In this document: positions 1,233 through 61,297 of the stretch, in pieces
How positions within the stretch are numbered: the stretch's first letter is position 1
Layout: each line of letters begins with the position of its first letter
DNA from: an uncultured virus (IMG/VR IMGVR_UViG_3300028840_004051)
Lineage: Duplodnaviria > Heunggongvirae > Uroviricota > Caudoviricetes
Strand: one strand, 5' to 3'
Length of the DNA stretch: 64,000 nt
IMG/VR virus record: IMGVR_UViG_3300028840_004051
The notes under the pieces: model-generated
Told to the model about the DNA's origin: nothing
The model's input: only the letters and a program-made list of their open reading frames with translations
Database searches by the model: none
Translations under genes and position numbers: made by a program

Positions 1233-1237
1233 CCACT

Positions 1238-1576
1238 ATGCCATTTAAAACATTCATCGTCATAAAGACACAATTTGAAGCCATACACAATTGGCCTGAT
1301 TGTGGTATTGAATCTGTAAGCTACCTGCGGAATCCACATAGACACATTTTTCATGTTGAGATGAAGTGGATTGTTGAGGGTTTAAATCGTGATATTGAAT
1401 TCATCGACCAAAAGCATAAAGTTGATGATTTTATCCATAAAAAATTGGCATATAAAAATATTGGTGCAATGAGTTGTGAGATGATCGCGTCAAGATTGAT
1501 GACAAAATTCAATGCTCGCTTCGTGAGTGTTTTTGAAGATGGCGAAAATGGTGCAGAGATATGTATGACTACATAA
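1238..1576 (+). CDS. QueD/6-pyruvoyl-tetrahydropterin synthase-like T-fold protein
   Basis: FEAIH...HRHIFHV...SCEMIA...VSVFED pattern, adjacent to folE. Confidence 0.7.
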   Translation: MPFKTFIVIKTQFEAIHNWPDCGIESVSYLRNPHRHIFHVEMKWIVEGLNRDIEFIDQKHKVDDFIHKKLAYKNIGAMSCEMIASRLMTKFNARFVSVFEDGENGAEICMTT

Positions 1577-20070: not shown

Positions 20071-21138
20071 ATGATTAACTCTATCCAAGCAGGAAACTTT
20101 CAATCGCATAAGGATCTCTTCTTAAAACTCCACCCAGGGGTTAATGCTATAATAGGACCATCTGACTCAGGTAAGACTGCCATCTTCCGCCTTCTTAATT
20201 GGATAATCAATAATAAGCCTGCAGGGGATGAGTTCCGTAGCTGGTGGGGAGGAGGCACCAGTGGATATATTGACTTAGAAGAGGGTTTTCTTATTGGGAG
20301 GATTAAGACTGATTCAGATAACCTTTATACCGTAACAAAAGCAGATGGTAGTGAGGATGAATATAGAGCATTTGGCCAGGCGGTACCAGAAGATATTCAG
20401 AAAATATTAAATATATCTGATATCAATTTTAGATTCCAGCATGACTCTCCTTTTCTACTTGGGCAATCGGCAGGCACCAATGCTCGCTACTTTAATAATC
20501 TTGTCAATCTAGATCTAATTGATAAAGCCCTTTACAATATTAATCATCGACTGAAGGATGAGAAAAACAGATTACAAAATAAAGAAGATAGTAAGCTTGA
20601 ACTTGAAAAGAAGCTGAAGGAATATGAGTGGCTGGATGATGCAGACACTAAACTTAAAGAAACAGAAGAACTTGATAGAAGATTACAGTATGCAAAGAAA
20701 GAATACAGAGAGCTTGATGAGCTTTCATCTAATTTTAAAGCAATAAAAAAACGACTGAAAGACATCAATGAAGTACTGAAGTTTAAAGAAAAAATAGATG
20801 AATTGCTTATAATAGATAAAAAGATTGATCAGTTATGCGAGGAAGAAAGCAGATTAAAGGGATTAAAAGAAGAGCTGATCAAGGTGAAGTCGAAAATAAA
20901 AAGATGCAATAAGATAATCGCATATGAAAATAAAGTCATGGACCTTTTAGCAATAGAGCAAGAAATAAGAATTCAAGAAAATAAAAGAGACAGGTTGAGT
21001 AAAGTGTTTAAGGAGTATTCGGAATTGAAGTATAAGCTGGAAATGGTTTCAAATAAACTTAATAAGACAGAGGATGAATTTAACCGTCTGATGCCAAATG
21101 TATGCCCTTTATGTGGGCAAGAGGTAAGAGATGAATAA
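20071..21138 (+). CDS. SbcC/Rad50-like ATPase, N-terminal half ending at zinc hook
   Basis: NFQSH, GPSDSGKT, coiled coil, terminal CPLCG. Confidence 0.85.
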   Translation: MINSIQAGNFQSHKDLFLKLHPGVNAIIGPSDSGKTAIFRLLNWIINNKPAGDEFRSWWGGGTSGYIDLEEGFLIGRIKTDSDNLYTVTKADGSEDEYRAFGQAVPEDIQKILNISDINFRFQHDSPFLLGQSAGTNARYFNNLVNLDLIDKALYNINHRLKDEKNRLQNKEDSKLELEKKLKEYEWLDDADTKLKETEELDRRLQYAKKEYRELDELSSNFKAIKKRLKDINEVLKFKEKIDELLIIDKKIDQLCEEESRLKGLKEELIKVKSKIKRCNKIIAYENKVMDLLAIEQEIRIQENKRDRLSKVFKEYSELKYKLEMVSNKLNKTEDEFNRLMPNVCPLCGQEVRDE

Positions 21139-21358
21139 AAAATGCCTAATACTATCTATAATCGGTGCGCCATTTGTTATTATAGCATTAGCGCTATTTG
21201 GTTTATTTATTGGCTATTTAATCATTCTGGTCGGTCAATATAGTGGAACGCTCCTCGGAATTCTTATTGGCATATTTATATTGTTTTCTTTAATTGTTAT
21301 CGCATCAAACCTATACGAGCATTGTGTAAAGTATCATAATGAGAAGAAGAAGAAATAA
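21131..21358 (+). CDS. small two-TM membrane protein
   Basis: two hydrophobic stretches. Confidence 0.6.
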   Translation: MNKKCLILSIIGAPFVIIALALFGLFIGYLIILVGQYSGTLLGILIGIFILFSLIVIASNLYEHCVKYHNEKKKK

Positions 21359-22319
21359 AAAAATAAATCAAGTTGATGCTATCTTAACATCAGATTGGCA
21401 TCTAAGGCCCGATACCCCTACCTCTCGCACAGACGACTATCAGAAAGCAATGTGGAAAAAGGTAGAATTTATTATTGCTCTATCAAGGAAACATCAATGC
21501 CCTATTCTCCATGCTGGCGATATGTTCCACAAACCGAATCAGCCATCGTGGTTGATTGAAGAATTCATGCGGCTGATTAATAAATCAATTGATAAATTTA
21601 ATCTTAAAAATTATACCCAAATCGACTTACTGCTTGCTGGGCAAGGAATTATATGTGTTGCAGGGCAGCATGACCTTCCTGCTCATAATTTAAACAATTG
21701 GCATAAGTCAGCCCTTGGTGCAATGACAAGAGCAAGTTATACAATCCCGCTTGGAGCTACAATATATAATCACTGGTCTTCGAATGTTTTCAATGCAAAA
21801 GGTTTTTCGTTTGGCCAGGAGTTAGAGCATAATCCTGATGAAGATTTTGATGTCGCCATTATCCATAAAATGGTTATTGAAGATAAACCAGAATGGCCAG
21901 GGCAAGTAGCCGATAGTGCTATATCTATCCTAAAGAAATACCCACTATTTAAATTGATTATAACAGGAGATAACCACCGCCCATTTACAGCGGAATATAA
22001 AGGGCAGCTTTTGGTTAACCCAGGAAGTATGATGCGCATGACTGCTGCTCAGATCGTTCATAAGCCAAGGGTTTATCTTTGGAATGCAAAAGAGAATTCA
22101 GTAGAAGTGGTCTATTTGCCAATTGAAAAAGATGTTCTCAATAGATCCCATATAGATAAAAGGCAAGAGATAGATGAAAGGATCGCTGAATATACTGAAA
22201 GATTAAAAATAAAATTTAAAGCTGGGATTAACTTTAAAGAAAATCTTGAAAGCCACTTTCAGAATACAAGAACAAGAAGGCAAGTAAAAGAAAGGGTATG
22301 GGAGGCGTGTGATAATTAA
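21339..22319 (+). CDS. SbcD/Mre11-like metallophosphoesterase nuclease
   Basis: SDWH, AGDMFH, GQHD, GDNH, NPGS. Confidence 0.88.
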   Translation: MRRRRNKKINQVDAILTSDWHLRPDTPTSRTDDYQKAMWKKVEFIIALSRKHQCPILHAGDMFHKPNQPSWLIEEFMRLINKSIDKFNLKNYTQIDLLLAGQGIICVAGQHDLPAHNLNNWHKSALGAMTRASYTIPLGATIYNHWSSNVFNAKGFSFGQELEHNPDEDFDVAIIHKMVIEDKPEWPGQVADSAISILKKYPLFKLIITGDNHRPFTAEYKGQLLVNPGSMMRMTAAQIVHKPRVYLWNAKENSVEVVYLPIEKDVLNRSHIDKRQEIDERIAEYTERLKIKFKAGINFKENLESHFQNTRTRRQVKERVWEACDN

Positions 22320-22843: not shown

Positions 22844-23452
22844 ATGCCACAACTAAAAGAATTCAGGGCGATACTATCTGAGGAGAAAGGGCAAAGAAAA
22901 CAGATACAGTCTGATCTTGATCAGACCAAGATCGATATAGAACTGCTAAAAGAAGATATCAGATTCACACAGATCGCGAGAGCTATCATTCAGAAGGTTG
23001 CCAGCGAGACCCAGAAGCAACTCGAATATCACATCAGCGAGCTGGTATCACTGGCAATGTCTGGCATCTTCCCTAACCCTTATGAATTCGAGGTTGAATT
23101 TAGGGAACATAGAGGGCGGACAGAATGCCAAATGAACTTCAAAAGAAACGGTCAGAAAGTAGATCCTCTTATGGGTGGTGGAGGTGGTCCGCTTGATGTT
23201 GCCAGTTTTGCTCTCATCCCAACTGTATGGAGCCTGAAGCCTACCAGGAATTTCCTTGCCCTGGATGAACCTTTTAAATATCTTAGCCGCGACCTACAAC
23301 CAAAAGCATCAGAGATGCTGAAAGAGATATCAAAAAGGCTTGGTTTACAGGTGCTGATGGTTACCCATTCGCCCGATCTGATAGAAGGTGCAGACAAAAT
23401 ATTTAAGACATCAATTAAAGATGGAATAACGGAGGTTTCAGAGGATGTATAA
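22844..23452 (+). CDS. SbcC/Rad50-like ATPase, C-terminal half
   Basis: signature-like MGGGGG, Walker B LALDEPF, VTH. Confidence 0.85.
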   Translation: MPQLKEFRAILSEEKGQRKQIQSDLDQTKIDIELLKEDIRFTQIARAIIQKVASETQKQLEYHISELVSLAMSGIFPNPYEFEVEFREHRGRTECQMNFKRNGQKVDPLMGGGGGPLDVASFALIPTVWSLKPTRNFLALDEPFKYLSRDLQPKASEMLKEISKRLGLQVLMVTHSPDLIEGADKIFKTSIKDGITEVSEDV

Positions 23453-24191
23453 CGGAAAAGAAATAACCACTATCATTCAAGCAAGACTTGGATCAACAAG
23501 ACTGCCGAATAAAGTTCTACTACCTCTGGCTAATAGGTCGGTTATAGAATGGGTATTTCATCGTTCATGTTATTCAAGGTATACTGATAGAACCATCGTT
23601 GCCATTCCTGATAATGAAGAAAACAGCCACCTCGCTGATTTTCTATACAATAAAAATATGAATTTCATCACTTGGAAAGGCGATGAGGATGATGTTATGT
23701 CAAGGGTCATCGCTGCTGCAAGCATCACCAAAACTGACATCATCGTTGACATAACTGCTGATTGCCCGATGGTCGACCCGTGGCATATTGATTATATGAT
23801 AAAGCTAAAAGAAGATAATCACATTGAATATATATCTAACTGTGTGATGAGAACATGGCCTGATGGATTAGATATACAAATATATGATTTGAATACTCTA
23901 CGAAGTGTTAAGAAGATATTCAAGCCAAAGAATCATGTTGGTTGGAATATAGCACAACATCCAACATTCTTCAGTGTATTCAACCTATCGGCTCCCGATG
24001 AATACTACTGGCCTGAATTAGGACTCACCCTCGATACCGAGGATGATTATACCTTGCTATCACATATTTTCAAGATATTTAAAAAAGATATATATTTCAG
24101 AGTTGAAGATATTATTCGATATATCAAAAAAAATCTCCCACTTGCTGACATAAACAAACATATCATAAGAAAGAAACCAGAAGAAGGATAA
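23445..24191 (+). CDS. SpsF/acylneuraminate cytidylyltransferase-family protein
   Basis: IIQARLGSTRLPNKVL, TADCP, LTLDTEDD. Confidence 0.88.
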   Translation: MYNGKEITTIIQARLGSTRLPNKVLLPLANRSVIEWVFHRSCYSRYTDRTIVAIPDNEENSHLADFLYNKNMNFITWKGDEDDVMSRVIAAASITKTDIIVDITADCPMVDPWHIDYMIKLKEDNHIEYISNCVMRTWPDGLDIQIYDLNTLRSVKKIFKPKNHVGWNIAQHPTFFSVFNLSAPDEYYWPELGLTLDTEDDYTLLSHIFKIFKKDIYFRVEDIIRYIKKNLPLADINKHIIRKKPEEG

Positions 24192-24197
24192 ACCAAA

Positions 24198-25184
24198 ATG
24201 CCAAAAGATAGATATTCAGCAGTGATTATAGGAGCAGGATCTATTGGGGCTTTAAAGCCTGACAAATATGACAGCCCTAATACCGAAAATATCCTTACCC
24301 ATGCTCATGCTATCTATAATAATCCAGAAACTGAACTGATAGCTATTGTTGATAACGATATTGATAAAGCGAATAAGGCAGCAGATAAATGGAGTTGTAA
24401 ACCTCTATATGATCTACAAGATGCGCCTTTTCTTTATGGATCAGATATATATGTTGTAGCTACTCCAACCCATACTCATAAAAGAATTCTTGAAAGTGTT
24501 CTTACACTCAAACCAAAGATAGTAATCGCTGAAAAGCCATTTACGAGAGGGTTTATTGAAGCAAAGATGGTATCGGATTTATATGAGAAAAATAATATTC
24601 CATTAGTGGTGAATTATTCAAGGCGATTTACTTTTGAATATGGACAAATTAAAGAAATGATTGACAGTGAAAAATGGGGCAAAGTATTGAATTGCAACTT
24701 TTACTATAACCGAGGATTAAAACATGAAGGATGCCATGCTATCGACCTCTTTAATTATTTCTTTGGAGAGTTGATTGATGGAAACATAATACTTGATAAT
24801 TCAATATGTGACTACTCACAATTTGATCCAACATATGCAGCATTCTTCACATATCAAAAATGCCCCTATATATTTATGTTTCCAGTCGATGGTAGGAAGA
24901 TATCAATATTTGAGATGAATATCATGTTTGAAAAAGCCAGGGTTAGCTTCGTCGATCATGGTACAAAATTAAATATATATGAGCTAACAACTGAAGAGAT
25001 ATATGATAATACCAAGGTGCTTTCAAGCACTCCAACAAAAACAATCAACACACAACTTACCAAATCACTTTCATGTCTTATTGATAACACTGTTAATTAT
25101 CTTGATGGAAATATGGACTTCTTATTATGCACAGATAAAGATGCAATAGAAGTCCATGAAGTCTATTACGCAATAGGTCTTTAA
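24198..25184 (+). CDS. Gfo/Idh/MocA oxidoreductase
   Basis: IIGAGSIG, ATPTHTH, AEKP, VNYSRRF. Confidence 0.88.
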   Translation: MPKDRYSAVIIGAGSIGALKPDKYDSPNTENILTHAHAIYNNPETELIAIVDNDIDKANKAADKWSCKPLYDLQDAPFLYGSDIYVVATPTHTHKRILESVLTLKPKIVIAEKPFTRGFIEAKMVSDLYEKNNIPLVVNYSRRFTFEYGQIKEMIDSEKWGKVLNCNFYYNRGLKHEGCHAIDLFNYFFGELIDGNIILDNSICDYSQFDPTYAAFFTYQKCPYIFMFPVDGRKISIFEMNIMFEKARVSFVDHGTKLNIYELTTEEIYDNTKVLSSTPTKTINTQLTKSLSCLIDNTVNYLDGNMDFLLCTDKDAIEVHEVYYAIGL

Positions 25185-25200
25185 ATAAGGAGATTAAGAA

Positions 25201-26556
25201 ATGCCAAAACTTGCAATAAAAGGTGGTCTTAAAGTTAGAAATAACCCTTTCCCGAATATGTCAACAATAGGCCAAAGTGAGTTGAATGCAGCGAGAAGGG
25301 TTATATTGACAGGAAATTTATCAGGTTTCAGAGGCAATTCAGGCCCAGGGTTTCAAGGTGGTCCCGAAGTAAGAGCACTTGAAAAGGAATGGGAAAAGAA
25401 ATTTGGAGTTAAACATGCTATCGCCGTCAACTCCTGTACATCGGGGTTGCATATTGCTTGCATAGCCATTGATTTAAAACCAGGTGATGAAGTAATTGTG
25501 ACTCCATGGTCGATGTCATGTAGTGCGACAGCGCCTATGATATGTGGGGCTATTCCAATCTTCGCTGACATTGAAGAGGATTATTATTGCCTTGATCCTC
25601 AATCGATAAGGGATAGAATAAGTGCAAGAACCAAAGCAATTATAGTAGTTGACTTATTTGGGCAGCCACATGATTATTCAGAAATACGAAAAATAGCCGA
25701 CGAATATAGTCTATCTATAATTGAGGATGCTGCACAAGCCATCGGATCATACTACGGTAAAAGAAGTACAGGAACGCTTGGAGATATCGGCGTTTATTCC
25801 TTCACTCAAGGGAAGCATATTACCTGCGGTGAAGGTGGTATGATCGTAACAAATGATGATAAATTAGCGATGTCTTGTATGTTGCTAAGAAATCATGCCG
25901 AGGCGGTTGAAAATGATTTGATTGGTTCAAAACCAAATTATAAAAAATATACTCTCCCTACATTTGATCACAATCTATTTGGATTCAACATGAGAATGAC
26001 AGAGATACAGGCCGCCATACTGAGAGAGCAACTCAAGTATTTAGATGGCGTTGTAGAAAAGCATCAGAAATCAGAACAATTCATAAGTGATAATCTAAGC
26101 CATCTAGATTATATTATCAAGTTTCCTAAAGTCAGACCTTACTCAACACATTCTTATTATGTTCAAGCTTTAAAATGGAGAACTGAAAATAAACATACTG
26201 AAGGAATACACCGCGATCAATATATTGAAGCAGTCAGGGCGGAGTTATCGCATGAAGAAGGTAGAGCTATTGAAGGCGTCCCGATCAGCTACGGATACAT
26301 AAAACCTCTTTACTTATTTCCTATATTCCAAAACTACCAAGATAAGTTAGACATCTATAAAAATGAGTATGAAAAAATCAGAAGGAGGCGTATAAAGGAG
26401 AATTATACACAAGGCAGTTGCCCTGTAGCTGAAAGATTATGGAAGAATGAAATAATTATAAACAGGCTGGTTGGAATGAATCTAATGGTTAGTGATCTTA
26501 AGGATGTCGTTAATGCATTCATTAAGGTTTGGGAGAATAGGGATGAATTAAGGTAA
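25201..26556 (+). CDS. DegT/DnrJ/EryC1/StrS sugar aminotransferase (PseC-like role)
   Basis: NSCTSGLH, IEDAAQA, SFTQGKHITCGEGG, NMRMTE. Confidence 0.92.
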   Translation: MPKLAIKGGLKVRNNPFPNMSTIGQSELNAARRVILTGNLSGFRGNSGPGFQGGPEVRALEKEWEKKFGVKHAIAVNSCTSGLHIACIAIDLKPGDEVIVTPWSMSCSATAPMICGAIPIFADIEEDYYCLDPQSIRDRISARTKAIIVVDLFGQPHDYSEIRKIADEYSLSIIEDAAQAIGSYYGKRSTGTLGDIGVYSFTQGKHITCGEGGMIVTNDDKLAMSCMLLRNHAEAVENDLIGSKPNYKKYTLPTFDHNLFGFNMRMTEIQAAILREQLKYLDGVVEKHQKSEQFISDNLSHLDYIIKFPKVRPYSTHSYYVQALKWRTENKHTEGIHRDQYIEAVRAELSHEEGRAIEGVPISYGYIKPLYLFPIFQNYQDKLDIYKNEYEKIRRRRIKENYTQGSCPVAERLWKNEIIINRLVGMNLMVSDLKDVVNAFIKVWENRDELR

Positions 26557-26736
26557 GGAATATGAAAACAAAAAATATAGATAAAATCATTCTTGTAGTT
26601 ATCGGGTTTAATATAGCCGTTAATATACATCAAGGAAATTGGCAGGCGGCGCTTGGATGGTTTATCGCCTCTCTTACTATTATTAGATTGCTTTTCTTTT
26701 ATAAAGAGAAATAAAAAATTAATAAGGATCAGTAAA

Positions 26737-27597
26737 ATGATACCATTTATAGCAGATATTGGAAGCAACCATAATCAAAGTCTCACAAGGGCTAAAAATC
26801 TTATTTTAGCTGCAAAAGAGAGTGGTTGTTGGGGAGTTAAGTTTCAGCTTTTTAAAGCCGAACAGCTATGGAGAGATAAGACAGTAGCAGGAAGGATGAA
26901 GCATTGGGAATTGCCAGAAGAGTTCATTCCTGAGCTTTCAAGTTTTTGTAAAGCGCTTGATATAGCCTTCGGCTGCACACCTTTCTACTTAAAAGCTGTC
27001 GATATACTCAAAGATCATGTTGACTTTTTAAAGGTTGGTTCATACGAATTACTCTGGCTTGATTTAATCAGGAAGTGTGCAAAAACTGATAAGAAGCTTA
27101 TCCTATCGACTGGCATGGGATCATTTGTTGAGATACTTAATGCAATGTCAGCCGCCATTGTGCATTGTAAATCAGGATGTAATGATGATGATAACGTCTT
27201 AGGTTCTATATCAGTCCTGCATTGTAATTCGACCTATCCTGCCAACCTTGAAGATTGCAATATGGCACAGATAGAAGTGCTTAGAAATCAATTTCGGAGA
27301 TCAGTTGGATGGAGTGATCATACCACTGAGCCAGGGGTAATTTATTCTGCCATTTCATATGGTGCCTCAATAATTGAATTTCATTTGGATTTAGAAGATA
27401 AGCAAGGGGTCGAATCTAGAAGCGGCCATTGCTGGAAACCAAGTAAAATTGAATGTGTTATAAATAATATAAGCAACTGGTTGAAGACTGAATATTTCAG
27501 TAAAACCAGTTTAACACAAAAAATAGAGGAGCTAAGAAAGTCAAGAACTGACCCAACTGATGGAATGAGGCCATTGAAGAATGTCAAATCTACATAA
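26737..27597 (+). CDS. N-acetylneuraminate/pseudaminate synthase family (NeuB/PseI)
   Basis: IADIGSNH, VKFQ, LKVGS, ILSTGM, LHCNSTYP, GWSDHT, IEFH; start reassigned to ATG 26737. Confidence 0.9.
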   Translation: MIPFIADIGSNHNQSLTRAKNLILAAKESGCWGVKFQLFKAEQLWRDKTVAGRMKHWELPEEFIPELSSFCKALDIAFGCTPFYLKAVDILKDHVDFLKVGSYELLWLDLIRKCAKTDKKLILSTGMGSFVEILNAMSAAIVHCKSGCNDDDNVLGSISVLHCNSTYPANLEDCNMAQIEVLRNQFRRSVGWSDHTTEPGVIYSAISYGASIIEFHLDLEDKQGVESRSGHCWKPSKIECVINNISNWLKTEYFSKTSLTQKIEELRKSRTDPTDGMRPLKNVKST

Positions 27598-28564
27598 TGC
27601 CGAAATATTAATAACAGGCGGGACAGGTAGCCTTGGGCTAACCCTTGTAAAAACCCTTGTAAAATATCATTCAGAAATAAAAGGGATACGAGTCTTTTCA
27701 AGAGACGAACTGAAGCAATGGCTGATGAAGCAGGAGATCAACGTATGGTGTATCAAAAATAAGCTCTATGTGCCGATCTCTTATTTGGTGGGTGATGTAA
27801 GAGATATCAAAAGGCTTAAGATTGCGATGAGAGGGGTCACCCATGTCATCCATGCTGCTGCCATGAAGCAAGTCCCTGCCTGTGAAGAAAACCCTCTTGA
27901 AGCGATTAAGACAAATATAGGCGGTGCAGAGAACATATTAGAAGCCGCTCTTTCATGTGACTCAATCGAGAAGGTTTTAGGCATAAGTACTGATAAGGCA
28001 ATATACCCTATAAATCTCTACGGGGTTACGAAAGCCGCGATGGAAAAGTTATTCATCCAAGGCAACGTTTACAGTAAAGGACATGAGAGAAAACCAAGAT
28101 TCAGTTGCTGCCGATATGGGAACGTTATAGGAAGCAGAGGAAGTGTGATTCCTTTATTTAAAAGTCAATATGATAGAAATCAAGAGATAACCGTTACCGA
28201 TTTGAAAATGACAAGGTTTTGGATTACCCGGCCAGCCGCTGCTCGCTTTGTAATAAATAGATTGATGTATATGGAGGGTGGTGAGATATTCGTCCCTAAA
28301 ATGCCAAGTTGTAGGGTTGTCGATCTTGCCAGAATGCTTATCCCTGATGTCCCTATAAAATATGTAGGGATAAGGAAAGGAGAGAAGATTCATGAATGGC
28401 TGATAACAACTGAGGAGAGCAGCGATTTATTAGAGTTAGGTAAAAGCTATGTAATCTCTTCAAGATATCAAAACAAGCATAAGAAGTTCGCTTATAACAG
28501 CCTTAGTAATGAACGGATTTTGAAAAAAGATGAATTCCATAAAATGTTAATAGAAGAAGTATAG
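27581..28564 (+). CDS. pseB: UDP-GlcNAc 4,6-dehydratase (PseB/FlaA1-like)
   Basis: ITGGTGSLG, SRDELKQ, HAAAMKQVP, STDKA, YGNVIGSRGSV, MTRFW, GEKIHE. Confidence 0.88.
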   Translation: MSNLHNAEILITGGTGSLGLTLVKTLVKYHSEIKGIRVFSRDELKQWLMKQEINVWCIKNKLYVPISYLVGDVRDIKRLKIAMRGVTHVIHAAAMKQVPACEENPLEAIKTNIGGAENILEAALSCDSIEKVLGISTDKAIYPINLYGVTKAAMEKLFIQGNVYSKGHERKPRFSCCRYGNVIGSRGSVIPLFKSQYDRNQEITVTDLKMTRFWITRPAAARFVINRLMYMEGGEIFVPKMPSCRVVDLARMLIPDVPIKYVGIRKGEKIHEWLITTEESSDLLELGKSYVISSRYQNKHKKFAYNSLSNERILKKDEFHKMLIEEV

Positions 28565-28573
28565 GAGAAAAAA

Positions 28574-28831
28574 ATGAAAGTATTTATGTTGATTTTAGCA
28601 AGTTTAATTTTTGTATCAGTATCCAATGCAGGTGAAATATGGGATGCATTTATATCTCAGAAACCCGCACCAATGCGTCACTGCTATGGTTGTCAAGAAG
28701 ATAGACGGGTGCAACAGGTCGAATCACAGTTTCAAAACAAAAATAATCGATTTGATTCTGGTGAGACTGATTCCGATGGATATGAAGGAAGTGATCCAAT
28801 AGACCCCGAAGGAACTGAACCAAGGTTTTAA
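28574..28831 (+). CDS. small secreted hypothetical protein
   Basis: N-terminal signal-peptide-like stretch; AGGAG RBS. Confidence 0.55.
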   Translation: MKVFMLILASLIFVSVSNAGEIWDAFISQKPAPMRHCYGCQEDRRVQQVESQFQNKNNRFDSGETDSDGYEGSDPIDPEGTEPRF

Positions 28832-28834
28832 TAA

Positions 28835-29401
28835 ATGAATAAAATATATGAAACAGATGATCTCATATTCGTTCCTTTCTTCAATATCAATCTAAAAAAT
28901 AGCAATTACTATGCTTGGATGCATGATCAGGAAGTCACCAGATATAACTCACATGGCCTCTTCCCTTATACAAAGAAAGAGGAGGATGAATGGCGTCAGG
29001 CGATTATAGATAATAAAATCATCGCCTGGGCAATAGTGAAGAAAATAGGCCCAAAAGAATTAGCCGGGCATCCTGTTAAGAGGACAGAGATGATCCATAT
29101 AGGTAATGTCAGTCTTCAGAGTTTCAACTGGATTAATCGAAGTGCTGAAATCGCCATCGTAATTGGCGAGAAGCAATACTGGGGTAAGGGATATGCGACT
29201 AAAGCATTCGATATAATGATAAGTCATGGATTCATGAAATTGAATCTTCACAGGATATGGTCTGGAACGGCTTCTATTAATAACGGGATGATTAGGGTAT
29301 TTGAAAAAGTAGGAATGCAATACGAAGGAACCTTTAGGGATGGAACTTTTCTTAATGGCCGTTATGTTGATGTTGTCTGCTATGCAGCGATTCAGGTGTA
29401 G
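28835..29401 (+). CDS. GNAT (RimJ/RimL-like) N-acetyltransferase, PseH-like role
   Basis: HIGNV, AEIAIVIGEKQYWGKGYA, LNLHRI, EGTFR. Confidence 0.85.
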   Translation: MNKIYETDDLIFVPFFNINLKNSNYYAWMHDQEVTRYNSHGLFPYTKKEEDEWRQAIIDNKIIAWAIVKKIGPKELAGHPVKRTEMIHIGNVSLQSFNWINRSAEIAIVIGEKQYWGKGYATKAFDIMISHGFMKLNLHRIWSGTASINNGMIRVFEKVGMQYEGTFRDGTFLNGRYVDVVCYAAIQV

Positions 29402-29480
29402 GTGGCTGGTTTCCTACCTCCTTTCCCAGCCGCCTCAAGGAGGGAGAGGGCGGTTGCTCTGGGGTAGGAGTAACGCCATC
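29401..29480. ncRNA. GC-rich long hairpin containing anti-SD and SD sequences (candidate regulatory RNA)
   Basis: nested stems GGTGGC/GCCATC, TCCTACCTC/GGGGTAGGA, CAGCCGCC/GGCGGTTG. Confidence 0.35.
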
Positions 29481-29514
29481 TCTCTTCCTAATATTAAATG
29501 AGGAATAAAGGGAA

Positions 29515-29712
29515 ATGAGCTATTTAAAAGATTACTCCTGGCATCACCATCATTTTTGGGTGCTAAAATCGCATTACAAGCATAGCACCGTGGCTGACAT
29601 CGGCACACCCTTGGATATCCATCAGACATATTATCATGTAGAAAAATGTACTATATGTTCTGCTGAAAGAATAGTTCCAATTGTACGATATTTCCGAAAT
29701 GAAATTGTGTAA
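29515..29712 (+). CDS. small His/Cys hypothetical protein
   Basis: 65 aa, HHHH...CTIC. Confidence 0.5.
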   Translation: MSYLKDYSWHHHHFWVLKSHYKHSTVADIGTPLDIHQTYYHVEKCTICSAERIVPIVRYFRNEIV

Positions 29713-29726
29713 GAAAGAAATATAAA

Positions 29727-29924
29727 ATGCAAACGGGTTGTTACGTCCTTCATTTATACTGCGATAAAAGAGAAAATAGAAGATGCAAAGGTGATGAATT
29801 CCCTTACGTATATACAGCAGAATATGGGTCTACTTGCCGGGAGCAAGCTAGAAAAGATGGATGGAAGTTAGGCAAAAAAGACATATGTCCGATATGTAAT
29901 AATAAGTTGTGGTTTCGCAATTAG
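29727..29924 (+). CDS. small zinc-binding hypothetical protein
   Basis: LYCD...ARKDGW...ICPIC. Confidence 0.6.
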   Translation: MQTGCYVLHLYCDKRENRRCKGDEFPYVYTAEYGSTCREQARKDGWKLGKKDICPICNNKLWFRN

Positions 29925-30001
29925 TATACGATCCTACAACCATCTTTAAACCGTAAACACCAGAAGTAGCTCCACGATAGTATAAGGAAAGAATTAAAAA
30001 A

Positions 30002-30370
30002 ATGTTTGATTATCATCTAATGGATCGTGTTTTAAGAAGAAAAAGTAATTTTGTCTGTGAATTTAACAAAGTTGCCAGAGAAGCCTACCAGATAAATAAA
30101 GAAAACGGCTGGTGGGATTGGGAAAGAAATGATGGCGAGCTCATTGCCCTTATGCATTCGGAGTTATCTGAGGCTTTAGAAGGTCTAAGGAAAAAATTAC
30201 CATCAGATAAGATAGATGGCTTTTTGGCAGTAGAGGAAGAGCTGGCCGATACTATCATCCGTATTATGGATATGGCTATGGCAAGAGGATATAGCATCGC
30301 TGGCGCTATAGAGGCAAAACTCGAATATAATAAGACAAGAGGATATAAACATGGAGGGAAGGAGTTCTGA
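30002..30370 (+). CDS. MazG-like nucleotide pyrophosphohydrolase
   Basis: LMHSELSEALEG...EEELADTIIRIMD...KLEYNKTRGYKHGGK. Confidence 0.85.
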   Translation: MFDYHLMDRVLRRKSNFVCEFNKVAREAYQINKENGWWDWERNDGELIALMHSELSEALEGLRKKLPSDKIDGFLAVEEELADTIIRIMDMAMARGYSIAGAIEAKLEYNKTRGYKHGGKEF

Positions 30371-30582
30371 TGGATTCACGTAAGTTAATAGAACTATTTG
30401 ATGATAAGCATCGCGAGAGAATTGATGATTACAGAAGAGGTTTATTAAACCATTCAAAAAAACCTGTTTCAGATAAAATCCATGTAGCCGTCCTTGCCTT
30501 AATCGAAGTCATCGCCCCATATCTGAAAGAAGATGCTGAAATTGAAAAAATAATGAAACAATTGATCAATAGGGGGTATTAA
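30370..30582 (+). CDS. hypothetical protein
   Basis: coupled 70-aa ORF. Confidence 0.5.
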   Translation: MDSRKLIELFDDKHRERIDDYRRGLLNHSKKPVSDKIHVAVLALIEVIAPYLKEDAEIEKIMKQLINRGY

Positions 30583-30587
30583 TTAAT

Positions 30588-30956
30588 ATGGAATTAGAAA
30601 CATTAAAATATGGGATTGAAGAGCTAGAAAAACTCATCAGCGGATTACAGCCCGTCGGTAAACATATCTGGGATGTAATGGTAAGACAAGCGATAATAAA
30701 TTCTATATTAAGTTGGGCATTCTTATTAGCGTTTTCAATAGTAATATATAAATTAATCACTTTTCTAAACAAACATTGGGAACCAACTGAAGGGTATAGT
30801 ATAACCGAAAATGATCATGAGGCATTTTGGATATCCTTATTGTTTATTGTTTCTATATTTGTAATTGTCGCATTAGTCAACTTCTTAATTCATGGCTTTG
30901 ATATACTAAACCCTGAATATAGAGCTATCATGGGATTAATAGGCAGAAATGAATAA
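30588..30956 (+). CDS. two-TM membrane protein
   Basis: hydrophobic helices, NPEYRAI. Confidence 0.65.
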   Translation: MELETLKYGIEELEKLISGLQPVGKHIWDVMVRQAIINSILSWAFLLAFSIVIYKLITFLNKHWEPTEGYSITENDHEAFWISLLFIVSIFVIVALVNFLIHGFDILNPEYRAIMGLIGRNE

Positions 30957-31143
30957 ATCATCAAACCAAAATCAAATATTAAACGAGATAGAAGCCATCC
31001 GTTCCTCGAATAATTCTAACTGGATGAGGATTATAAGAATCGCTCTCAAGCATGATAAAGAAGAAACTATAAAACTTCTTAAGAACATAGTTGAAATGGA
31101 CGGAAGAATAAAGTCAGAAATGGAGAAACTAATTAATGAATAG
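30949..31143 (+). CDS. small helical protein
   Basis: IEAIRSSNNSNWM pattern; overlaps neighbours. Confidence 0.6.
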   Translation: MNKSSNQNQILNEIEAIRSSNNSNWMRIIRIALKHDKEETIKLLKNIVEMDGRIKSEMEKLINE

Positions 31144-34048
31144 GAAAAGGCTTAGTGTAAATCTAAAATCAATTATGGATATAAACCCATCCTTGTATAG
31201 CTGGATAGATAAGCAGGAAGAGGTTGATTGGGTTAGAGAAATCAAAAGTGATGATGGCCTCCCAAATCTTCTTATTTCAATTGGAAACAAGACAATCGCT
31301 GCATATAAAATGAGGGGTGCGAAGATAGAGGCTTTTCGTGCGGCGAAGAAAATGAAACTTTATAAGGAGAATGTCAGCATATTAATAGGTTTCGGCCTTG
31401 GGTATATGGCAAGGGCGATGCTTGATAAAATGGAGAAAGGGCATCATGTCATAGTCATTGAACCAGTCGGTCATGTGCTGAGACTTGGGCTATCTAATTT
31501 TGACTTCTCAAAAGAGATAAGAAATTTTGAATTAATCATCGTCGAACCAAACCCAAAAGAAATAGCAGCCGCCTTTGGTATACTTGATAATAGTTACATC
31601 GTTAATGATTGGTTGGTAACAATCAATAAGTATACCAAGCTGAGGCCAGATGAATATGGCGAATCAATGAAGTTAGTTCTCGATATCCTGAATCAGATCA
31701 TGTGTTCCATTGGTACGATAGCTGGAGGGGCAGGAGCGAAGATAGCTGATAATGATATTGCTTGTCTTCCTTATGTTATCCGTCATAGAGGAGTAGCTGA
31801 ACTGAAAGATATATTCAAGGATAAACCAGCAATACTTGTCAGCACCGGGCCAAGCCTTGCTAAAAATATTCATCAATTAATCGATATCAGCAAAGAAAAT
31901 AAAGCCGTAATAATTGCAGTTGGACAAGCCCTCAGAATTCTACTCGCCTACGATATTAAACCTGACTTCATCTGCACGGTTGATTTTGGTGAGGTCAACA
32001 TGGGGCATTTTACAGGTCTTATGAATTCAGATGTCCCACTCGTTACAATCAATAGAGCCTATGCTCCTTTACTGAAATCATGGCAAGGGCCAAAGTTCAT
32101 CGTCTCTACTCCGGTGCCAGGGTTTGAGAAAACCGCCGCTGGCATACTAACTAATAAAGGCAGTCTTGAGGCAGGTGGTAGTGTTGCACATCTCTGCTTT
32201 ACATTTGCACAATCACTTGGTTGTGATCCAATAACGTTAATTGGTCAGGATTTGGCTCTATCAAATACATCTCATATTCCCTTGGCTGATGCCTCCGGCA
32301 AAATTCAAATATCGGAGAACGGACAGATAGGTTGGAAGGTAAGCGATCATCGCTGCCATCTTCACAATGAAAAAGATGAAGTTTATGGTATGGGGCCAGT
32401 CCATCAAGTCCCAGGTTACTATGGTAAGCCTGTGATAACAAACCTGGGGCTCGCTTCATTTATAACGAGCTTTGAAGCGATGGCAAGCAAGTGCGAGGCA
32501 AAAGTAATCAATGCAACCGAGGGCGGAGCAGATATCCGCAATACTGAAAAGATGATGCTCAAAGAAGTCATAAATCAATACTGCAAAGAAAAGATCGACA
32601 AAACAGAATTAGAAAAGTTGAAAACTCTTGCTGATGATGGTGATGATCTTATTGAAAAAGTCATCCCCTTACTTGAAAAGGATATTGATAATCTCAATGA
32701 GGTGATAAGTCAAGGTAGAAAAGGGCTGGCAAGCGCAAGAGGATTAGCGACACTTATGAGTCGTAATAATTATAAAGCTCTTCTTAACAAAAAAAATAAG
32801 GTATTCCTAAACAAACTATTAAAAGAAAGTAAGAGTGAGTCAGAAGTCGATAGAATAAATATGAATATAATATTCTTTGAGAAATTAGTTAATCAGTTAA
32901 GAAAATCAAAATTAAAGAATATAGTCCTTCTAACTCAGAAAAATTTCGTGCATTCAGAAAATACGAGGATAGCAGCGACAAAGAATCCTCTTGTCAACGT
33001 CGCCATATATGGAGCGAGTAGAAGAATATGGCAAAGGAAGCTTAAGGTTAATGAAAAGTTCGAGCACTTTTTAACCAATAGAAAAGATGCAATGACAAGG
33101 CTTGAAAGGAATAAATTAATCTTAAATGCCGCCGTCAGTGCTGCAAAAGAACTAAAGCCTACATATAAGAAAACCCTAAAGCTGCTTAAGAAATATAATA
33201 AGAAAAAAGATGATAGTTTGCTGGTTGATAGAACACCCGAACTAATGGACCTCAGTGATGCAGATAGTTATTTTGATGCTGATAACTGGGCACATCCATT
33301 GGTTGACGCGAAGAGATGTATTGATAAAATGCTGTTACTATCCAATGCCAAGCCATCAATATGTAACAAACCATTTGATGAAGTGAAGGCAATCTATAAA
33401 AAAGCTCTCACTATGAGAGAAGAAGCGATAGAGAAAGCAAAAAAAGAAGAGTATGATAATTGGGAAGAAAGAAAGAAAATTCTTGAATATAATCGCCTGA
33501 TAAAAGAAAGTAGAGAAGCTGGTAAGAATGATCAAGACTTTAGCAAAGCAGTTGAGATCCTTGAGGAGGCGAAAGAATTATTTCCAGATAATCCTGAAGC
33601 TAAGTGGGGCTTAGCCACTGCCCTACATCATTCGGGTCGATTTGATGAATCATTATCTATGTATCGAGAACTGATAAAGGAATCGCCTGATAATAACAGA
33701 TACAAATTTGAGATGGGCCAGGTGCTACTTAAGACGGGGCAAACAAAGGAGGGATTAGATACATTGAAAGAGGCGATGGAATCAACCAGCGAATTCGATG
33801 GTGCCCTGGCAAATATTGGACAGATATATGAACACGCTGGAATGAATAAAGATGCCCTTAGAGCTTATAATCTTTACCTGAAAAAGTTCCCAGCGGACTA
33901 TGAAGTCTTGAATATGAAAGCAGTATGCCTTTCGAAGTTGAAGAGATATGGGCAGGCCATTAAAGTATTAAAAGCCTGTCTGAAAATAAAGCCGGATTTT
34001 AAGCAGGCAAAAGAAAACTTGCAAGTATTAAAGCGGCGTGGAATATAG
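31136..34048 (+). CDS. Maf/DUF115 (motility-associated factor, MptE-like) glycosyltransferase with C-terminal TPR repeats
   Basis: GFGLGY, STGPSL, IKPDF, GGSVAH, LIGQDLA, INATEGGA; TPRs in the C-terminal ~180 aa. Confidence 0.85.
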   Translation: MNRKRLSVNLKSIMDINPSLYSWIDKQEEVDWVREIKSDDGLPNLLISIGNKTIAAYKMRGAKIEAFRAAKKMKLYKENVSILIGFGLGYMARAMLDKMEKGHHVIVIEPVGHVLRLGLSNFDFSKEIRNFELIIVEPNPKEIAAAFGILDNSYIVNDWLVTINKYTKLRPDEYGESMKLVLDILNQIMCSIGTIAGGAGAKIADNDIACLPYVIRHRGVAELKDIFKDKPAILVSTGPSLAKNIHQLIDISKENKAVIIAVGQALRILLAYDIKPDFICTVDFGEVNMGHFTGLMNSDVPLVTINRAYAPLLKSWQGPKFIVSTPVPGFEKTAAGILTNKGSLEAGGSVAHLCFTFAQSLGCDPITLIGQDLALSNTSHIPLADASGKIQISENGQIGWKVSDHRCHLHNEKDEVYGMGPVHQVPGYYGKPVITNLGLASFITSFEAMASKCEAKVINATEGGADIRNTEKMMLKEVINQYCKEKIDKTELEKLKTLADDGDDLIEKVIPLLEKDIDNLNEVISQGRKGLASARGLATLMSRNNYKALLNKKNKVFLNKLLKESKSESEVDRINMNIIFFEKLVNQLRKSKLKNIVLLTQKNFVHSENTRIAATKNPLVNVAIYGASRRIWQRKLKVNEKFEHFLTNRKDAMTRLERNKLILNAAVSAAKELKPTYKKTLKLLKKYNKKKDDSLLVDRTPELMDLSDADSYFDADNWAHPLVDAKRCIDKMLLLSNAKPSICNKPFDEVKAIYKKALTMREEAIEKAKKEEYDNWEERKKILEYNRLIKESREAGKNDQDFSKAVEILEEAKELFPDNPEAKWGLATALHHSGRFDESLSMYRELIKESPDNNRYKFEMGQVLLKTGQTKEGLDTLKEAMESTSEFDGALANIGQIYEHAGMNKDALRAYNLYLKKFPADYEVLNMKAVCLSKLKRYGQAIKVLKACLKIKPDFKQAKENLQVLKRRGI

Positions 34049-34151: not shown

Positions 34152-34440
34152 AAGTCACTCGATATAAGAAACCCACAAAGTGGAAGCGAGCCATGGGTTT
34201 TAAGAAACCCACCATCATCAAGCGAGCCACCAGCCGCAAGAAATCCAAGAAGTAAAAGCGAGCCATGAGGTCGAAGAAACCCAGAACCGTAAAGCGAGCC
34301 AATCCAAAAAAGAAAACCAGAAAAGTTAAGCGAGCCAACGGTTTAAAGAAACCCATATCCGCCAAGCGAGCCATGATGCGTAAGAAACCCACAGGTAAAA
34401 AGCGAGTCAAAAAGCCGAAGAAACCCAAGAAAGCTAAGCG
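34152..34440 (+). ncRNA. TIGR-like array 1: eight 36-nt units
   Basis: alternating AAGCGAGCCA (edge) and AAGAAACCCA (loop) repeats separated by 8 variable nt; begins with half-repeat AAGTCA and ends with AAGCG. Confidence 0.92.
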
Positions 34441-34470
34441 TTAACTAACTACAAAAAAGGAATGTAACCA

Positions 34471-35397
34471 ATGAAAAAAGAAATCAAAAGAATGGCAAGA
34501 AAAAGAACAGATGAGGTATTCCCTGAAAACGATTCACTATTTGATACTCATAGGTTAATACCGAAAAGAAAAAATGGCACATACACGGATGAAAATACGG
34601 TAATCAAAATGCCGATTGATCATCAAATTGAGCATGGGACATTTAAGCAGAGAGAAAGTGAATTTGAAAAATTAAAAAGCCTATTTGATGATAGACAAAG
34701 TTTAATGAAGTCACGGATGAAAATAGATAATGCACTACTGGCATATAAAAGGGGAACAGATGTTCCTACGATTGAAATGATAAAATTTTATGAAGAGAAA
34801 ATCAAAGAATTTGTGAAGTTTGAAAATAAGAGAAAAGGGGAAATCGAAAAGCAGCTAGAAAAAATAAACCATCCTGTCGCAAACGCCATGAGGGAGGTCG
34901 ATCAGGTTGGTCCGGTTATCGCAGCAGGTTGTATTATTTATTTAGACATTAAAAAAGCACGCCATCCGAGTAGTTTTTGGAAATATTGTGGATTGGATAA
35001 ACCATTTTTTAGTAGGTATGAAAAAGGCAAGTCCAGCGGGGGCAATAAAAAATTAAGAACTGTTTTATATAATATGGCAAAATGTCAGGAAATGTGTTTA
35101 ACGGCACCTTATAGACCAGTATACGATAATAAAAAACAAAAACTTGCGCAAAGTGAAAAAATCTGCGAGCAGACAAGAGGTACGGATGGGAAGATTAAAA
35201 AAAATGTAAAGTGGAAAGATGTAAAGCCATGTCATCGTCGAGGTGCAGCATTACGAGAAGTTATGAAACATTTCTTAGCGGATTTACACTATGTATGGTG
35301 CTGTATTGAGGGGATTGAGCCTTCGAAGCCATATGCCGAAGCACAACTTGGAAAACATAAAACTATTATGCCAGAAGAAAGAGGGTGGATTTTTTAA
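34471..35397 (+). CDS. tasH: TasH-like RNA-guided nuclease (N-terminal HNH + coiled coil + Nop/IS110-like RNA-binding domain)
   Basis: DTHRLIP...GTY...N...DHQIEH HNH motif; VGPVIAA, SSFWKYCGL, GGNKKLRTVLY Nop/IS110-like motifs; flanked by dual-repeat arrays. Confidence 0.85.
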   Translation: MKKEIKRMARKRTDEVFPENDSLFDTHRLIPKRKNGTYTDENTVIKMPIDHQIEHGTFKQRESEFEKLKSLFDDRQSLMKSRMKIDNALLAYKRGTDVPTIEMIKFYEEKIKEFVKFENKRKGEIEKQLEKINHPVANAMREVDQVGPVIAAGCIIYLDIKKARHPSSFWKYCGLDKPFFSRYEKGKSSGGNKKLRTVLYNMAKCQEMCLTAPYRPVYDNKKQKLAQSEKICEQTRGTDGKIKKNVKWKDVKPCHRRGAALREVMKHFLADLHYVWCCIEGIEPSKPYAEAQLGKHKTIMPEERGWIF

Positions 35398-35400
35398 TTA

Positions 35401-35626
35401 AAGCGAGCCATCCTATCTAAGAAATCCAAAAGCATAAAGCGAGCCACCAGCATCAAGAAACCCATGATGCAGAAGCGAGCCATTGACCGCAAGAAACCCA
35501 GGAAGTAAAAGCGAGCCATGTTTATCAAGAAACCCAGTATCGAGAAGCGAGCCATCTGATTGAAGAAACCCATTAAGTTTAAGCGAGCCAGCGCTGTTAA
35601 GAAACCCAGAAGGTAAAAGCGAGTTA
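35401..35626 (+). ncRNA. TIGR-like array 2: six 36-nt units
   Basis: same two repeats and period, starts 3 nt after the tas stop codon. Confidence 0.92.
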
Positions 35627-59166: not shown

Positions 59167-59176
59167 AATCCATTCT

Positions 59177-61294: not shown

Positions 61295-61297
61295 CTA

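Follow-up and report, generated by a model that had tools for sequence, protein, structure and literature searches.

The DNA analysed here, hereafter the window, is a stretch of 64,000 nucleotides from an uncultured tailed virus (IMG/VR record IMGVR_UViG_3300028840_004051; Duplodnaviria, Heunggongvirae, Uroviricota, Caudoviricetes). At positions 23445-34048, with all genes on the plus strand, it carries a cassette in which predicted enzymes for the synthesis of a nonulosonic (sialic-acid-like) acid stand together with a gene for a Maf-type transferase that ends in tetratricopeptide repeats (TPRs). An earlier reading of the sequence, which we call the original prediction, had named seven genes at this locus, and the listing of open reading frames (ORFs) together with Pfam and NCBIfam profile searches recovered all seven of them at the same coordinates and on the same strand (Table 1).

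The replicon that carries the cassette is the genome of a tailed phage, a myovirus. The names given by PHROGs to genes near the cassette include sheath, tube, baseplate, tape measure, major head protein, portal, DNA polymerase and clamp loader. To the left of the cassette lie a DnaE-type polymerase, a clamp, a clamp loader, a helicase, a UvsX-like recombinase and an SbcCD-like nuclease; the replication machinery of these phages is thus their own. The genes to the right run on the opposite strand and are those for a tailspike, baseplate, tape measure, tube, sheath, head-completion proteins, major head protein, protease and portal. Neither tRNA genes nor Rfam families were found within the window.

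Table 1. Cassette genes, candidate acceptors and other features of the window, with the evidence for each
Feature	Length (aa)	Position	Strand	Evidence or remarks
CMP-sugar (ulosonic/nonulosonic acid) cytidylyltransferase	248	23445-24191	+	Pfam CTP_transf_3, E 2.6e-22
Gfo/Idh/MocA NAD(P)-dependent sugar oxidoreductase	328	24198-25184	+	Pfam PF01408 GFO_IDH_MocA, E 6.7e-13
DegT-family PLP (pyridoxal phosphate) sugar aminotransferase	451	25201-26556	+	Pfam DegT, E 3.2e-82
NeuB-type nonulosonate synthase	314	26653-27597	+	Pfam NeuB, E 2.3e-48
PseB-type UDP-GlcNAc 4,6-dehydratase (inverting)	327	27581-28564	+	Pfam Polysacc_synt_2, E 2.2e-92
ORF	85	28574-28831	+	Signal-peptide-like N-terminus; no Pfam, NCBIfam or PHROGs match
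GNAT N-acetyltransferase	188	28835-29401	+	Pfam Acetyltransf_3, E 1.2e-23
Pyrophosphatase-like ORF		30002-30370	+	phrog_3301, E 8.2e-29
Membrane-protein ORF		30588-30956	+	phrog_1486, E 4.2e-12
Maf-type nonulosonic-acid protein glycosyltransferase with C-terminal TPR (predicted)	970	31136-34048	+	Pfam, NCBIfam, AlphaFold2 (AF2)/Foldseek
Poly-serine protein	705	59177-61294	-	583 Ser (83%), 63 Glu; S10E period of ~11 residues; speculative acceptor
Protein with poly-serine region	673	61298-63319	-	~300-aa beta-helix-like N-terminal domain, ~370 aa poly-Ser, short C-terminal motif; speculative acceptor
GTP cyclohydrolase I		597-1232	+
B12-type radical-SAM-like protein		1561-2856	+
GT-B-like glycosyltransferase		2853-3884	+	Weak Glycos_transf_1 match
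Queuine-tRNA-ribosyltransferase/DpdA-like protein		3857-4966	+
SbcC-like ATPase, N-terminal ORF		20071-21138	+
SbcD-like nuclease		21339-22319	+
SbcC-like ATPase, C-terminal ORF		22844-23452	+
TIGR-Tas system, whole		34165-35623		Between Maf and tail-fibre genes
TIGR-Tas left array		34165-34406		36-nt period, ~6 units
TIGR-Tas ORF	308	34471-35397	+	NF052498 'TIGR-Tas system RNA-guided endonuclease', 125.4 bits (cut-off 100)
TIGR-Tas right array		35400-35623		36-nt period, ~6 units
Tailspike		36127-38247	-	Right-handed beta-helix; weak match to K1-lyase 'Rider' domain

The last gene of the cassette carries much of the argument. Its product matches the Pfam MptE-like/MAF family (PF01973) over residues 213-377 with E 1.4e-42 and 145.8 bits, against a cut-off of 34.6, and the NCBIfam model for Campylobacter PseD (NF050051) with 100.7 bits over residues 74-624, which is far below the equivalog cut-off. 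TPR families are matched at about residues 795-965 in Pfam and TPR chains of the PDB at 795-969, and the AF2 model of the 970-aa protein (predicted local distance difference test (pLDDT) 90.4, predicted template modelling score (pTM) 0.81) has ten helices between residues 802 and 969. In a Foldseek search, the top match of this model was 5MU5, the Maf protein of Magnetospirillum magneticum AMB-1 (E 3e-16, probability 1.00, 800 alignment columns), and all other listed matches were TPR proteins, such as O-GlcNAc transferase (OGT). The same chain was the best PDB match by sequence over residues 1-760 (E 0.0016). The likeness to 5MU5 has its limits, given that identity in the Foldseek alignment is 14% and that 5MU5 has no C-terminal TPR counterpart of residues 795-965, which match OGT-type TPRs instead. 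Taken together, the profile match and the modelled fold support the view of the original prediction that the 970-aa protein is a genuine Maf-type transferase.

In its domain layout, a MAF_flag10 region followed by a C-terminal TPR, the protein resembles Maf-1 of Shewanella oneidensis MR-1, a 'bipartite' flagellin pseudaminyltransferase. In Maf-1, the acceptor is reported to be bound by the C-terminal TPR, and the enzyme on its own to be enough when the heterologous host produces pseudaminic acid (Pse) (bioRxiv 10.1101/2023.12.03.569772). Because the architecture is the same, we read the phage protein, by analogy, as a self-sufficient protein O-glycosyltransferase in which the TPR domain would choose the acceptor. 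It differs from Maf-1 (822 aa) in its length and in being encoded by a phage, and none of the 30 related phage records that we scanned contains a match to Flagellin_N.

Among the enzymes predicted to make the donor sugar, the dehydratase gives the clearest assignment. In NCBIfam it scores 360.5 bits on the PseB model TIGR03589 (cut-off 407.75), versus 224.5 for FnlA and 58.3 for LegB. A PseB-type dehydratase would put the start of the route in the pseudaminic-like, 6-deoxy branch, and a NeuB-type synthase combined with a CTP_transf_3 cytidylyltransferase points to a nine-carbon 3-deoxy-2-ulosonic acid activated with cytidine monophosphate (CMP). The synthase, whose true start is probably the ATG at 26737 (giving 286 aa), retains the motifs IADIGSNHN, SDHT and EFH, which we take to be hallmarks of NeuB. 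Its NCBIfam scores are 164.1 on the NeuB model (cut-off 399.65) and 139.1 on the PseI model (cut-off 340.25), both below the cut-off. The best models for the aminotransferase are those of PseC (TIGR03588, 210.5 bits, cut-off 423.5) and LegC (186.2), each reached at about half of the cut-off, and the GNAT protein scores 27.8 bits on the PseH model TIGR03585 (cut-off 93.1). The cytidylyltransferase matched no PseF or NeuA equivalog in NCBIfam; its nearest solved chain is 6oew 'Cytidylyltransferase' (E 1.8e-30), followed by KdsB enzymes.

Several of these comparisons count against a plain assignment to the pseudaminic pathway. The dehydratase appears, on its profile scores, to be the sole subfamily-specific (PseB-like) enzyme of the cassette. 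The best NCBIfam models for the cytidylyltransferase are those of the KdsB subfamily, at scores far under their cut-offs. For the aminotransferase, the nearest solved chains are 2-deoxy-scyllo-inosose aminotransferases (E 5.8e-47), and solved PseC of Helicobacter pylori (2fn6, E 3.8e-25) ranks far under these and under perosamine aminotransferases. The synthase matches no Pfam family other than NeuB and thus has no SAF domain, and it is nearer to SpsE of Bacillus subtilis (1vli, 7.8e-20; then 6ncs) than to solved PseI (8h2c, 6.8e-13). The solved chains nearest to the GNAT protein are SpeG rather than PseH, and none of its 28 PDB matches is a chain named PseH; it seems to belong to a subfamily other than PseH. 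The aminotransferase, GNAT, synthase and cytidylyltransferase therefore look, as far as profiles and solved relatives go, not to be assignable to the Pse route over other nonulosonate routes.

We then turned to the distribution of the cassette. A search of 5.8 billion clustered proteins gave 229 relatives of the Maf region, and the 120 that were listed, the window protein aside, are 583-1,024 aa long with 37-67% identity. Nearly all of the listed relatives are metagenomic, and the few named ones are bins of metagenome-assembled genomes (MAGs) labelled WWE3, Alphaproteobacteria and Promethearchaeota. An earlier search of viral contigs with the single Maf protein gave nothing; an alignment of 34 Maf relatives was used to search IMG/VR, and 52 viral contigs were found to encode a Maf-TPR relative, mostly with the same gene order. 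With the addition of L001, derived from the nearest record G001, these make up 53 loci, many of which are cut at contig ends. By tblastn with the window proteins, GNAT was found in 49 of the 53 loci, PseB in 44, DegT in 40, Gfo in 36, NeuB in 34 and the cytidylyltransferase in 32, and nine further loci have a shorter NeuB-like gene in the NeuB slot. The usual order is SbcC(N)-SbcD-SbcC(C), cytidylyltransferase, Gfo, DegT, NeuB, PseB, GNAT and Maf, followed by convergent tail-fibre and baseplate genes.

We also assembled 14 related records from 20-kb pieces, of which 10 are at least 97% complete and nine of those 10 have terminal repeats. Their G+C content is 29-51%, and the complete ones are 58-123 kb long. 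The genes for the cytidylyltransferase, Gfo, DegT, PseB, GNAT and Maf occur in all 14, and NeuB was found by tblastn in 13, the 14th having the short form. The co-occurrence of maf and neuB, which the original prediction had put forward as a check, is thus seen both in the assembled records and in the larger set of loci. In a separate comparison, the baseplate wedge protein was used as a probe and 21 loci with at least 8 kb on the Maf side were considered. Of these baseplate relatives, 10 have retained the 200-aa baseplate-side protein of the clade, nine of them together with Maf, and Maf is absent from all 11 that are more distant; the exception among the 10 (L167) has a radical-SAM-like ORF in the Maf position. 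In 50,697 deposited phage genomes, tblastn found no match to Maf and two weak matches to NeuB, at 25-30% identity; when the region was compared by megablast with INPHARED phages, nothing matched. On the question of vertical inheritance, identity to the window across 12 relatives is only moderately correlated between Maf and the sheath (rho 0.60, p 0.04, single reference). The cassette is a trait of the lineage and not a stray acquisition.

The composition of the cassette varies among relatives. Several have two GNAT copies, and second cytidylyltransferases, a methyltransferase, a radical-SAM gene and a BNR_2 gene were also found. This variation in gene content suggests that phages of the lineage produce not one sugar but several related ones. 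The BNR_2 gene, encoding a sialidase-like beta-propeller of ~365 aa, lies between NeuB and PseB in the eight closest relatives (L003-L006, L009, L010, L015 and L043) and is absent from the window. In five loci (L003, L007, L010, L015 and L043) the Maf gene is in two pieces, which are separated by one ORF in L003 and L015 and by several, including a Tas-like one, in L043, and are adjacent in L007 and L010; such splits could reflect introns, inteins, homing elements or frameshifts. An ORF for an HNH/NUMOD3 homing endonuclease lies within the cassette of L047, and sigma-70-family ORFs (regions 2 and 4) lie within the cassettes of L008 (8741-9370) and L017 (6707-7441).

Three ORFs inside the window cassette stand apart from this conserved set. 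The 85-aa ORF had no tblastn match in any of the 53 loci and is probably not part of the pathway. The pyrophosphatase-like and membrane-protein ORFs were matched solely in L001.

One enzyme of the canonical pathway is missing. The PseG model TIGR03590, which does match control genomes, found nothing in any of the 30 related phage records, and the same is true of the Epimerase_2 family of NeuC/LegG type. Neither PseG nor a NeuC-type family was detected in the scanned ORFs of the window or among 97 further cassette ORFs of its relatives, so that the remark in the original prediction that no PseG was visible is upheld over a much wider range of sequence. Indeed, no enzyme of the known kinds that could release the hexose from uridine diphosphate (UDP) was found in the 30 records and the 97 ORFs, which weighs against a self-contained pathway.

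At the same time, one enzyme appears to be in excess. The Gfo/Idh/MocA protein has a catalytic E112-K113-P114 motif and an H180 that are invariant in an alignment of 28 phage homologues, and its AF2 model (pLDDT 95.6) matches, in Foldseek, scyllo-inositol dehydrogenase, glucuronide 3-dehydrogenase, WlbA, KijD10 and GnnA at E 1e-17 to 1e-19. The model resembles sugar and nucleotide-sugar 3-dehydrogenases, ketoreductases, glycoside 3-dehydrogenases and levoglucosan dehydrogenase with nearly equal scores. Its family comprises 236 proteins at E<=1e-10; the 120 listed are all metagenomic, the few named ones being MAG or viral-metagenome entries, and none of the matches listed came from a cultured organism. 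A scan of one genome per species gave two loci with relatives, both on MAG contigs. Given that PseG is absent whereas the Gfo enzyme is always present, the route or the sugar should differ from canonical pseudaminic acid, and the suggestion in the original prediction that the extra oxidoreductase marks a different sugar or route has gained support from the 14 assembled relatives.

What, then, might this enzyme do? Tentatively, and with somewhat less than an even chance of being right, we suggest that it replaces PseG as a new NAD-dependent UDP-sugar hydrolase. The UDP-sugar would be oxidized transiently, and UDP would then leave by elimination. Such oxidation-assisted elimination is the logic used by NAD-dependent glycosidases of the Gfo fold. 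A replacement of this kind would account together for the enzyme that is missing and the one that is in excess, and it would free the phage from reliance on its host. However, Foldseek did not set a hydrolase-type relative of the model apart from dehydrogenase-type ones, which is a point against it. Alternatively, the Gfo enzyme may tailor the nonulosonate, by analogy with the pairs of cytidylyltransferase and oxidoreductase in Acinetobacter, and the hydrolysis step would then have to be supplied by the host. The prophage-borne EpaA and EpaB of Acinetobacter baumannii are described as jointly altering the stereochemistry of the nonulosonate, by converting Pse to 8-epi-Pse (PMC12053666). They resemble the present cassette in being phage-borne enzymes that act on pseudaminic acid and in combining a CTP_transf_3 cytidylyltransferase with oxidoreductases; they differ from it in that, as described there, they merely tailor a capsule sugar made by the host, their reductase domains are of the aldo-keto reductase and short-chain dehydrogenase/reductase types, and neither a synthase nor a Maf protein belongs to the system (PMC12053666). 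A third possibility, that Gfo and DegT act as a pair of 3-dehydrogenase and aminotransferase, would fit the adjacency of their genes. This seems unlikely because the nitrogen would land on the carbon whose oxygen closes the nonulosonate ring.

We propose that the cassette is a self-contained protein-glycosylation module in the core of one uncultivated, apparently virulent myovirus lineage, and that it acts on the phage's own structural proteins; for this proposal as a whole we consider the balance to be about even. Of this, the gene identities, the Maf fold, conservation with synteny across the lineage and the absence of PseG, of flagellin and, nearly always, of a tyrosine integrase are observed, and we infer which sugar is made, what the oxidoreductase does and which protein accepts the sugar. 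The six enzymes would start from a nucleotide-activated N-acetylhexosamine, most likely UDP-N-acetylglucosamine (UDP-GlcNAc), and end with a sialic-acid-like sugar of nine carbons that is activated with CMP and probably belongs to the 5,7-diamino-3,5,7,9-tetradeoxy (pseudaminic-like) class. In this scheme, PseB-type 4,6-dehydration would be followed by amination by the DegT enzyme and N-acylation by the GNAT. The free hexose would then be released, with the Gfo enzyme either replacing the canonical hydrolase at this step or else tailoring the sugar, and NeuB-type condensation with phosphoenolpyruvate and CMP activation by the cytidylyltransferase would follow. Finally, the MAF core would transfer the sugar from CMP to Ser/Thr hydroxyls of a protein picked by the C-terminal TPR.

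The retention of a module of ~10 kb in genomes down to 58 kb, and across a G+C range of 29-51%, suggests a function intrinsic to the phage, the simplest being decoration of its own particle. The acceptor would then most likely be one or more of the phage's own structural proteins, which we regard as candidates only. In 34 of the 53 loci, Maf adjoins tail-fibre or baseplate genes. Three kinds of observation tell against this proposal. First, Maf and the tail genes are not neighbours in G009 and G014, nor in four loci in which Maf is followed by head genes; the position of Maf beside the tail-fibre genes is a mere module boundary. Second, the part of the enzyme expected to recognize the acceptor is conserved no better than the other non-catalytic domains: among 33 relatives, mean identity to the window protein is 59% in the MAF core and 32-35% in the N-terminal, helical and TPR parts, with the TPR domain at 35%. 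Third, all Maf proteins that have been solved and characterized act on flagellin, so that precedent favours flagellin of the host.

This precedent leads to the strongest competing explanation, in which the pathway and the transferase are the same and the sugar goes to a protein of the host, be it flagellin, as precedent would have it, a pilin or an S-layer protein. The surface of the infected cell would be re-decorated, which would block the adsorption of competing or progeny phages (receptor masking) or alter motility. Characterized Maf proteins are reported to act on flagellin, and the TPR of Maf-1 to bind it (bioRxiv 10.1101/2023.12.03.569772; PMC5420450). Since flagellin is absent from the phage records, a flagellin target would need to be the host's. 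However, only one of the 30 records yielded a tyrosine integrase, and the 10 with a completeness of 90% or more yielded none, serine recombinases not having been tested. The phages thus look virulent, and lysogenic conversion is unlikely. The original prediction had offered superinfection exclusion as one purpose of the system, and it is this part of it that finds no support in lysogeny, whereas the phage pathway of nonulosonate type with a Maf-type transferase stands. In addition, flagellin is reported to be glycosylated before export (PMC4065374), so that a lytic infection would presumably alter newly made filament alone. The presence of the cassette in all 14 assembled relatives, with a spread of G+C content that suggests diverse hosts, also fits a phage-intrinsic acceptor better. 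We therefore regard a host protein as an unlikely acceptor, though one to be taken seriously.

Another explanation is that the activated acidic sugar is destined for a non-protein acceptor, such as a host capsule, lipopolysaccharide (LPS), extracellular polysaccharide (EPS) or protein-attached glycan, and that the Maf-like enzyme acts on a sugar. As stated in PMC5420450, nonulosonic acids can be accepted by a site on a polypeptide or by a sugar within an oligosaccharide. The sialidase-like BNR_2 gene in the cassettes of the closest relatives and, in this phage, the tailspike of polysaccharide-degrading type that adjoins the cassette would both agree with a glycan acceptor. Against it stands the TPR fusion, an architecture that is reported to select a protein acceptor in Maf-1 (bioRxiv 10.1101/2023.12.03.569772). 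Furthermore, no other glycosyltransferase, flippase or polymerase families were found in the cassette ORFs of the window or in the 97 extra ORFs of the relatives. This explanation seems quite improbable to us.

Lastly, the idea that the Maf-like protein is an MptE-type 6-hydroxymethylpterin diphosphokinase acting alongside the folE/7-deazaguanine genes of the window's left end, which the original prediction had named as the result that would overturn it, draws on the MptE-like name of the matched Pfam family and on the GTP cyclohydrolase I and DpdA-like genes in the same window, and can be practically dismissed on fold and synteny: the solved MptE-type kinase 8sd5 gave only E 0.14 over 68 residues, versus 5MU5 as the best match by both sequence and fold, the Maf gene accompanies sugar genes in 52 loci, and DpdA was found in none of the 14 assembled relatives, all of which have Maf.

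Sialic-acid-like sugars and Maf enzymes are known from the surface decoration of bacteria and archaea, above all of flagella. The flagellin glycosylation islands of Campylobacter, Helicobacter and Aeromonas combine PseB-C-H-G-I-F with Maf/PseD. Maf1 of A. caviae is mentioned in PMC5420450. The phage cassette resembles these islands in that a dehydratase, an aminotransferase, an N-acetyltransferase, a NeuB-type synthase and a cytidylyltransferase are clustered with a Maf-family gene. It differs from them in having no PseG, an extra Gfo/Idh/MocA enzyme and a synthase without SAF, in that most of its enzymes fall below equivalog cut-offs, and in its location between recombination and tail genes of a virulent phage genome. 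Viruses that glycosylate their own particles are also known: mycobacteriophages glycosylate virion proteins, and giant viruses carry self-encoded glycosylation machinery. The proposed phage system would be like these in being a case of a virus with its own glycosyltransferases decorating its own particle. To our knowledge, those systems use ordinary hexose-type sugars and GT-A or GT-B enzymes, and we know of none with a nonulosonate pathway and a Maf-type transferase. Our literature search, which left most subscription journals and supplements outside its reach, found no paper on a phage-encoded Maf or a complete phage nonulosonate pathway. The parts are therefore of known kinds, namely a nonulosonate pathway and a Maf-1-type transferase. 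What is new is that they belong to the conserved core gene set of a phage lineage, that the route does without PseG and includes a Gfo enzyme, that the synthase has no SAF domain and that the phage genomes lack flagellin.

By these findings, a widespread lineage of environmental phages has in its conserved core the predicted genes both for donor synthesis and for a self-sufficient protein transferase. If the acceptor is a virion protein, the particles would be coated with nonulosonic acid, and this would matter for adsorption, for particle stability and for the way in which hosts or grazers recognize them. A route without PseG also brings with it a candidate for a new enzyme at the committed hydrolysis step, and the compact Maf-TPR enzyme could become a portable tool for the site-directed 'sialylation' of proteins.

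We also considered the two poly-serine proteins of the window as candidate acceptors, because they provide a concrete substrate hypothesis for Maf-TPR. Their genes are adjacent in the late operon on the minus strand, a short way upstream of portal. The gene for the 705-aa protein draws freely on all six serine codons (TCA 236, TCG 67, TCT 95, TCC 18, AGC 58, AGT 109), and only 4 nt separate its ATG from the preceding stop, that of the 673-aa gene; for these reasons we read the serine frame as real. We take the long open reading frames of the opposite strand and of the remaining frames to be by-products of composition. Repeat periods, including one of 33 bp, run across the poly-Ser region. The N-terminal 300 aa of the 673-aa protein have Atlas neighbours among viral hypothetical clusters and the Beta_helix, NosD and DUF1565 families.

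Serine arrays of this kind recall the serine-rich repeat glycoproteins of bacteria, and they would be ideal substrates for a Ser/Thr O-glycosyltransferase. It is conceivable, if rather improbable, that Maf-TPR loads the acidic nine-carbon sugar onto hundreds of serines of both proteins and so makes mucin-like glyco-fibres. If this were true, a densely charged brush would lie on or around the virion, and one of the fibre proteins would have a beta-helix head. A complex prediction of Maf residues 200-970 with the last 80 residues of the 673-aa protein (score 0.01, mark 0.32) speaks neither for nor against this.

Long Ser-rich ORFs were then sought in the relatives; a degenerate DNA pattern scan proved too loose to be used alone. 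Two such ORFs occur in the window, four in G002 and one in G027. In G002, the closest complete relative, four adjacent genes encode repeats of Ser-X dipeptides; among their products, one shows weak homology to the beta-helix protein and one ends in a similar C-terminal motif (IIAFESSL, versus IIEFPSTF and YIEFSSPL). In G027, a protein of the baseplate module has a poly-Ser linker. Pfam gave no informative domain for the Ser-rich proteins of G002 and G027. A 150-aa Ser/Gly-rich frame was seen in G007, a Thr-rich frame at the contig end in G008 and a 93-aa frame just at the threshold in G005, and the complete genomes G006, G009, G010, G011, G014 and G016 have none. Since six of the 10 near-complete Maf-positive genomes lack such an ORF, and a seventh (G005) is borderline, poly-Ser proteins cannot be the common acceptor and were rejected as a lineage-wide one. 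As a control, 53 Maf-negative loci (674 kb) gave 12 moderately Ser/Thr-rich frames with a maximum of 0.56, none of them extreme. The record G001 was rejected as independent support: it is 100% identical to window positions 56001-62293 and ends inside the repeat, so that the repeat length stands without independent confirmation.

Other features of the window were noted in passing. The order SbcC(N)-SbcD-SbcC(C) seen here, with the SbcC-like ATPase split around the nuclease, recurs in related phages. The tailspike, to judge from its domain matches, suggests a polysaccharide-degrading spike and a host that is encapsulated or coated with EPS. At the left end, the genes at 597-4966 look, from their family matches, like a 7-deazaguanine DNA-modification cluster with an unusual glycosyltransferase neighbour. 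In the TIGR-Tas system, the two arrays that flank the endonuclease ORF have the words AAAGCGAGCCA and AAGAAACCCA in common, and weak homologues of this ORF, with 26-28% identity, are present in L026 and L043.

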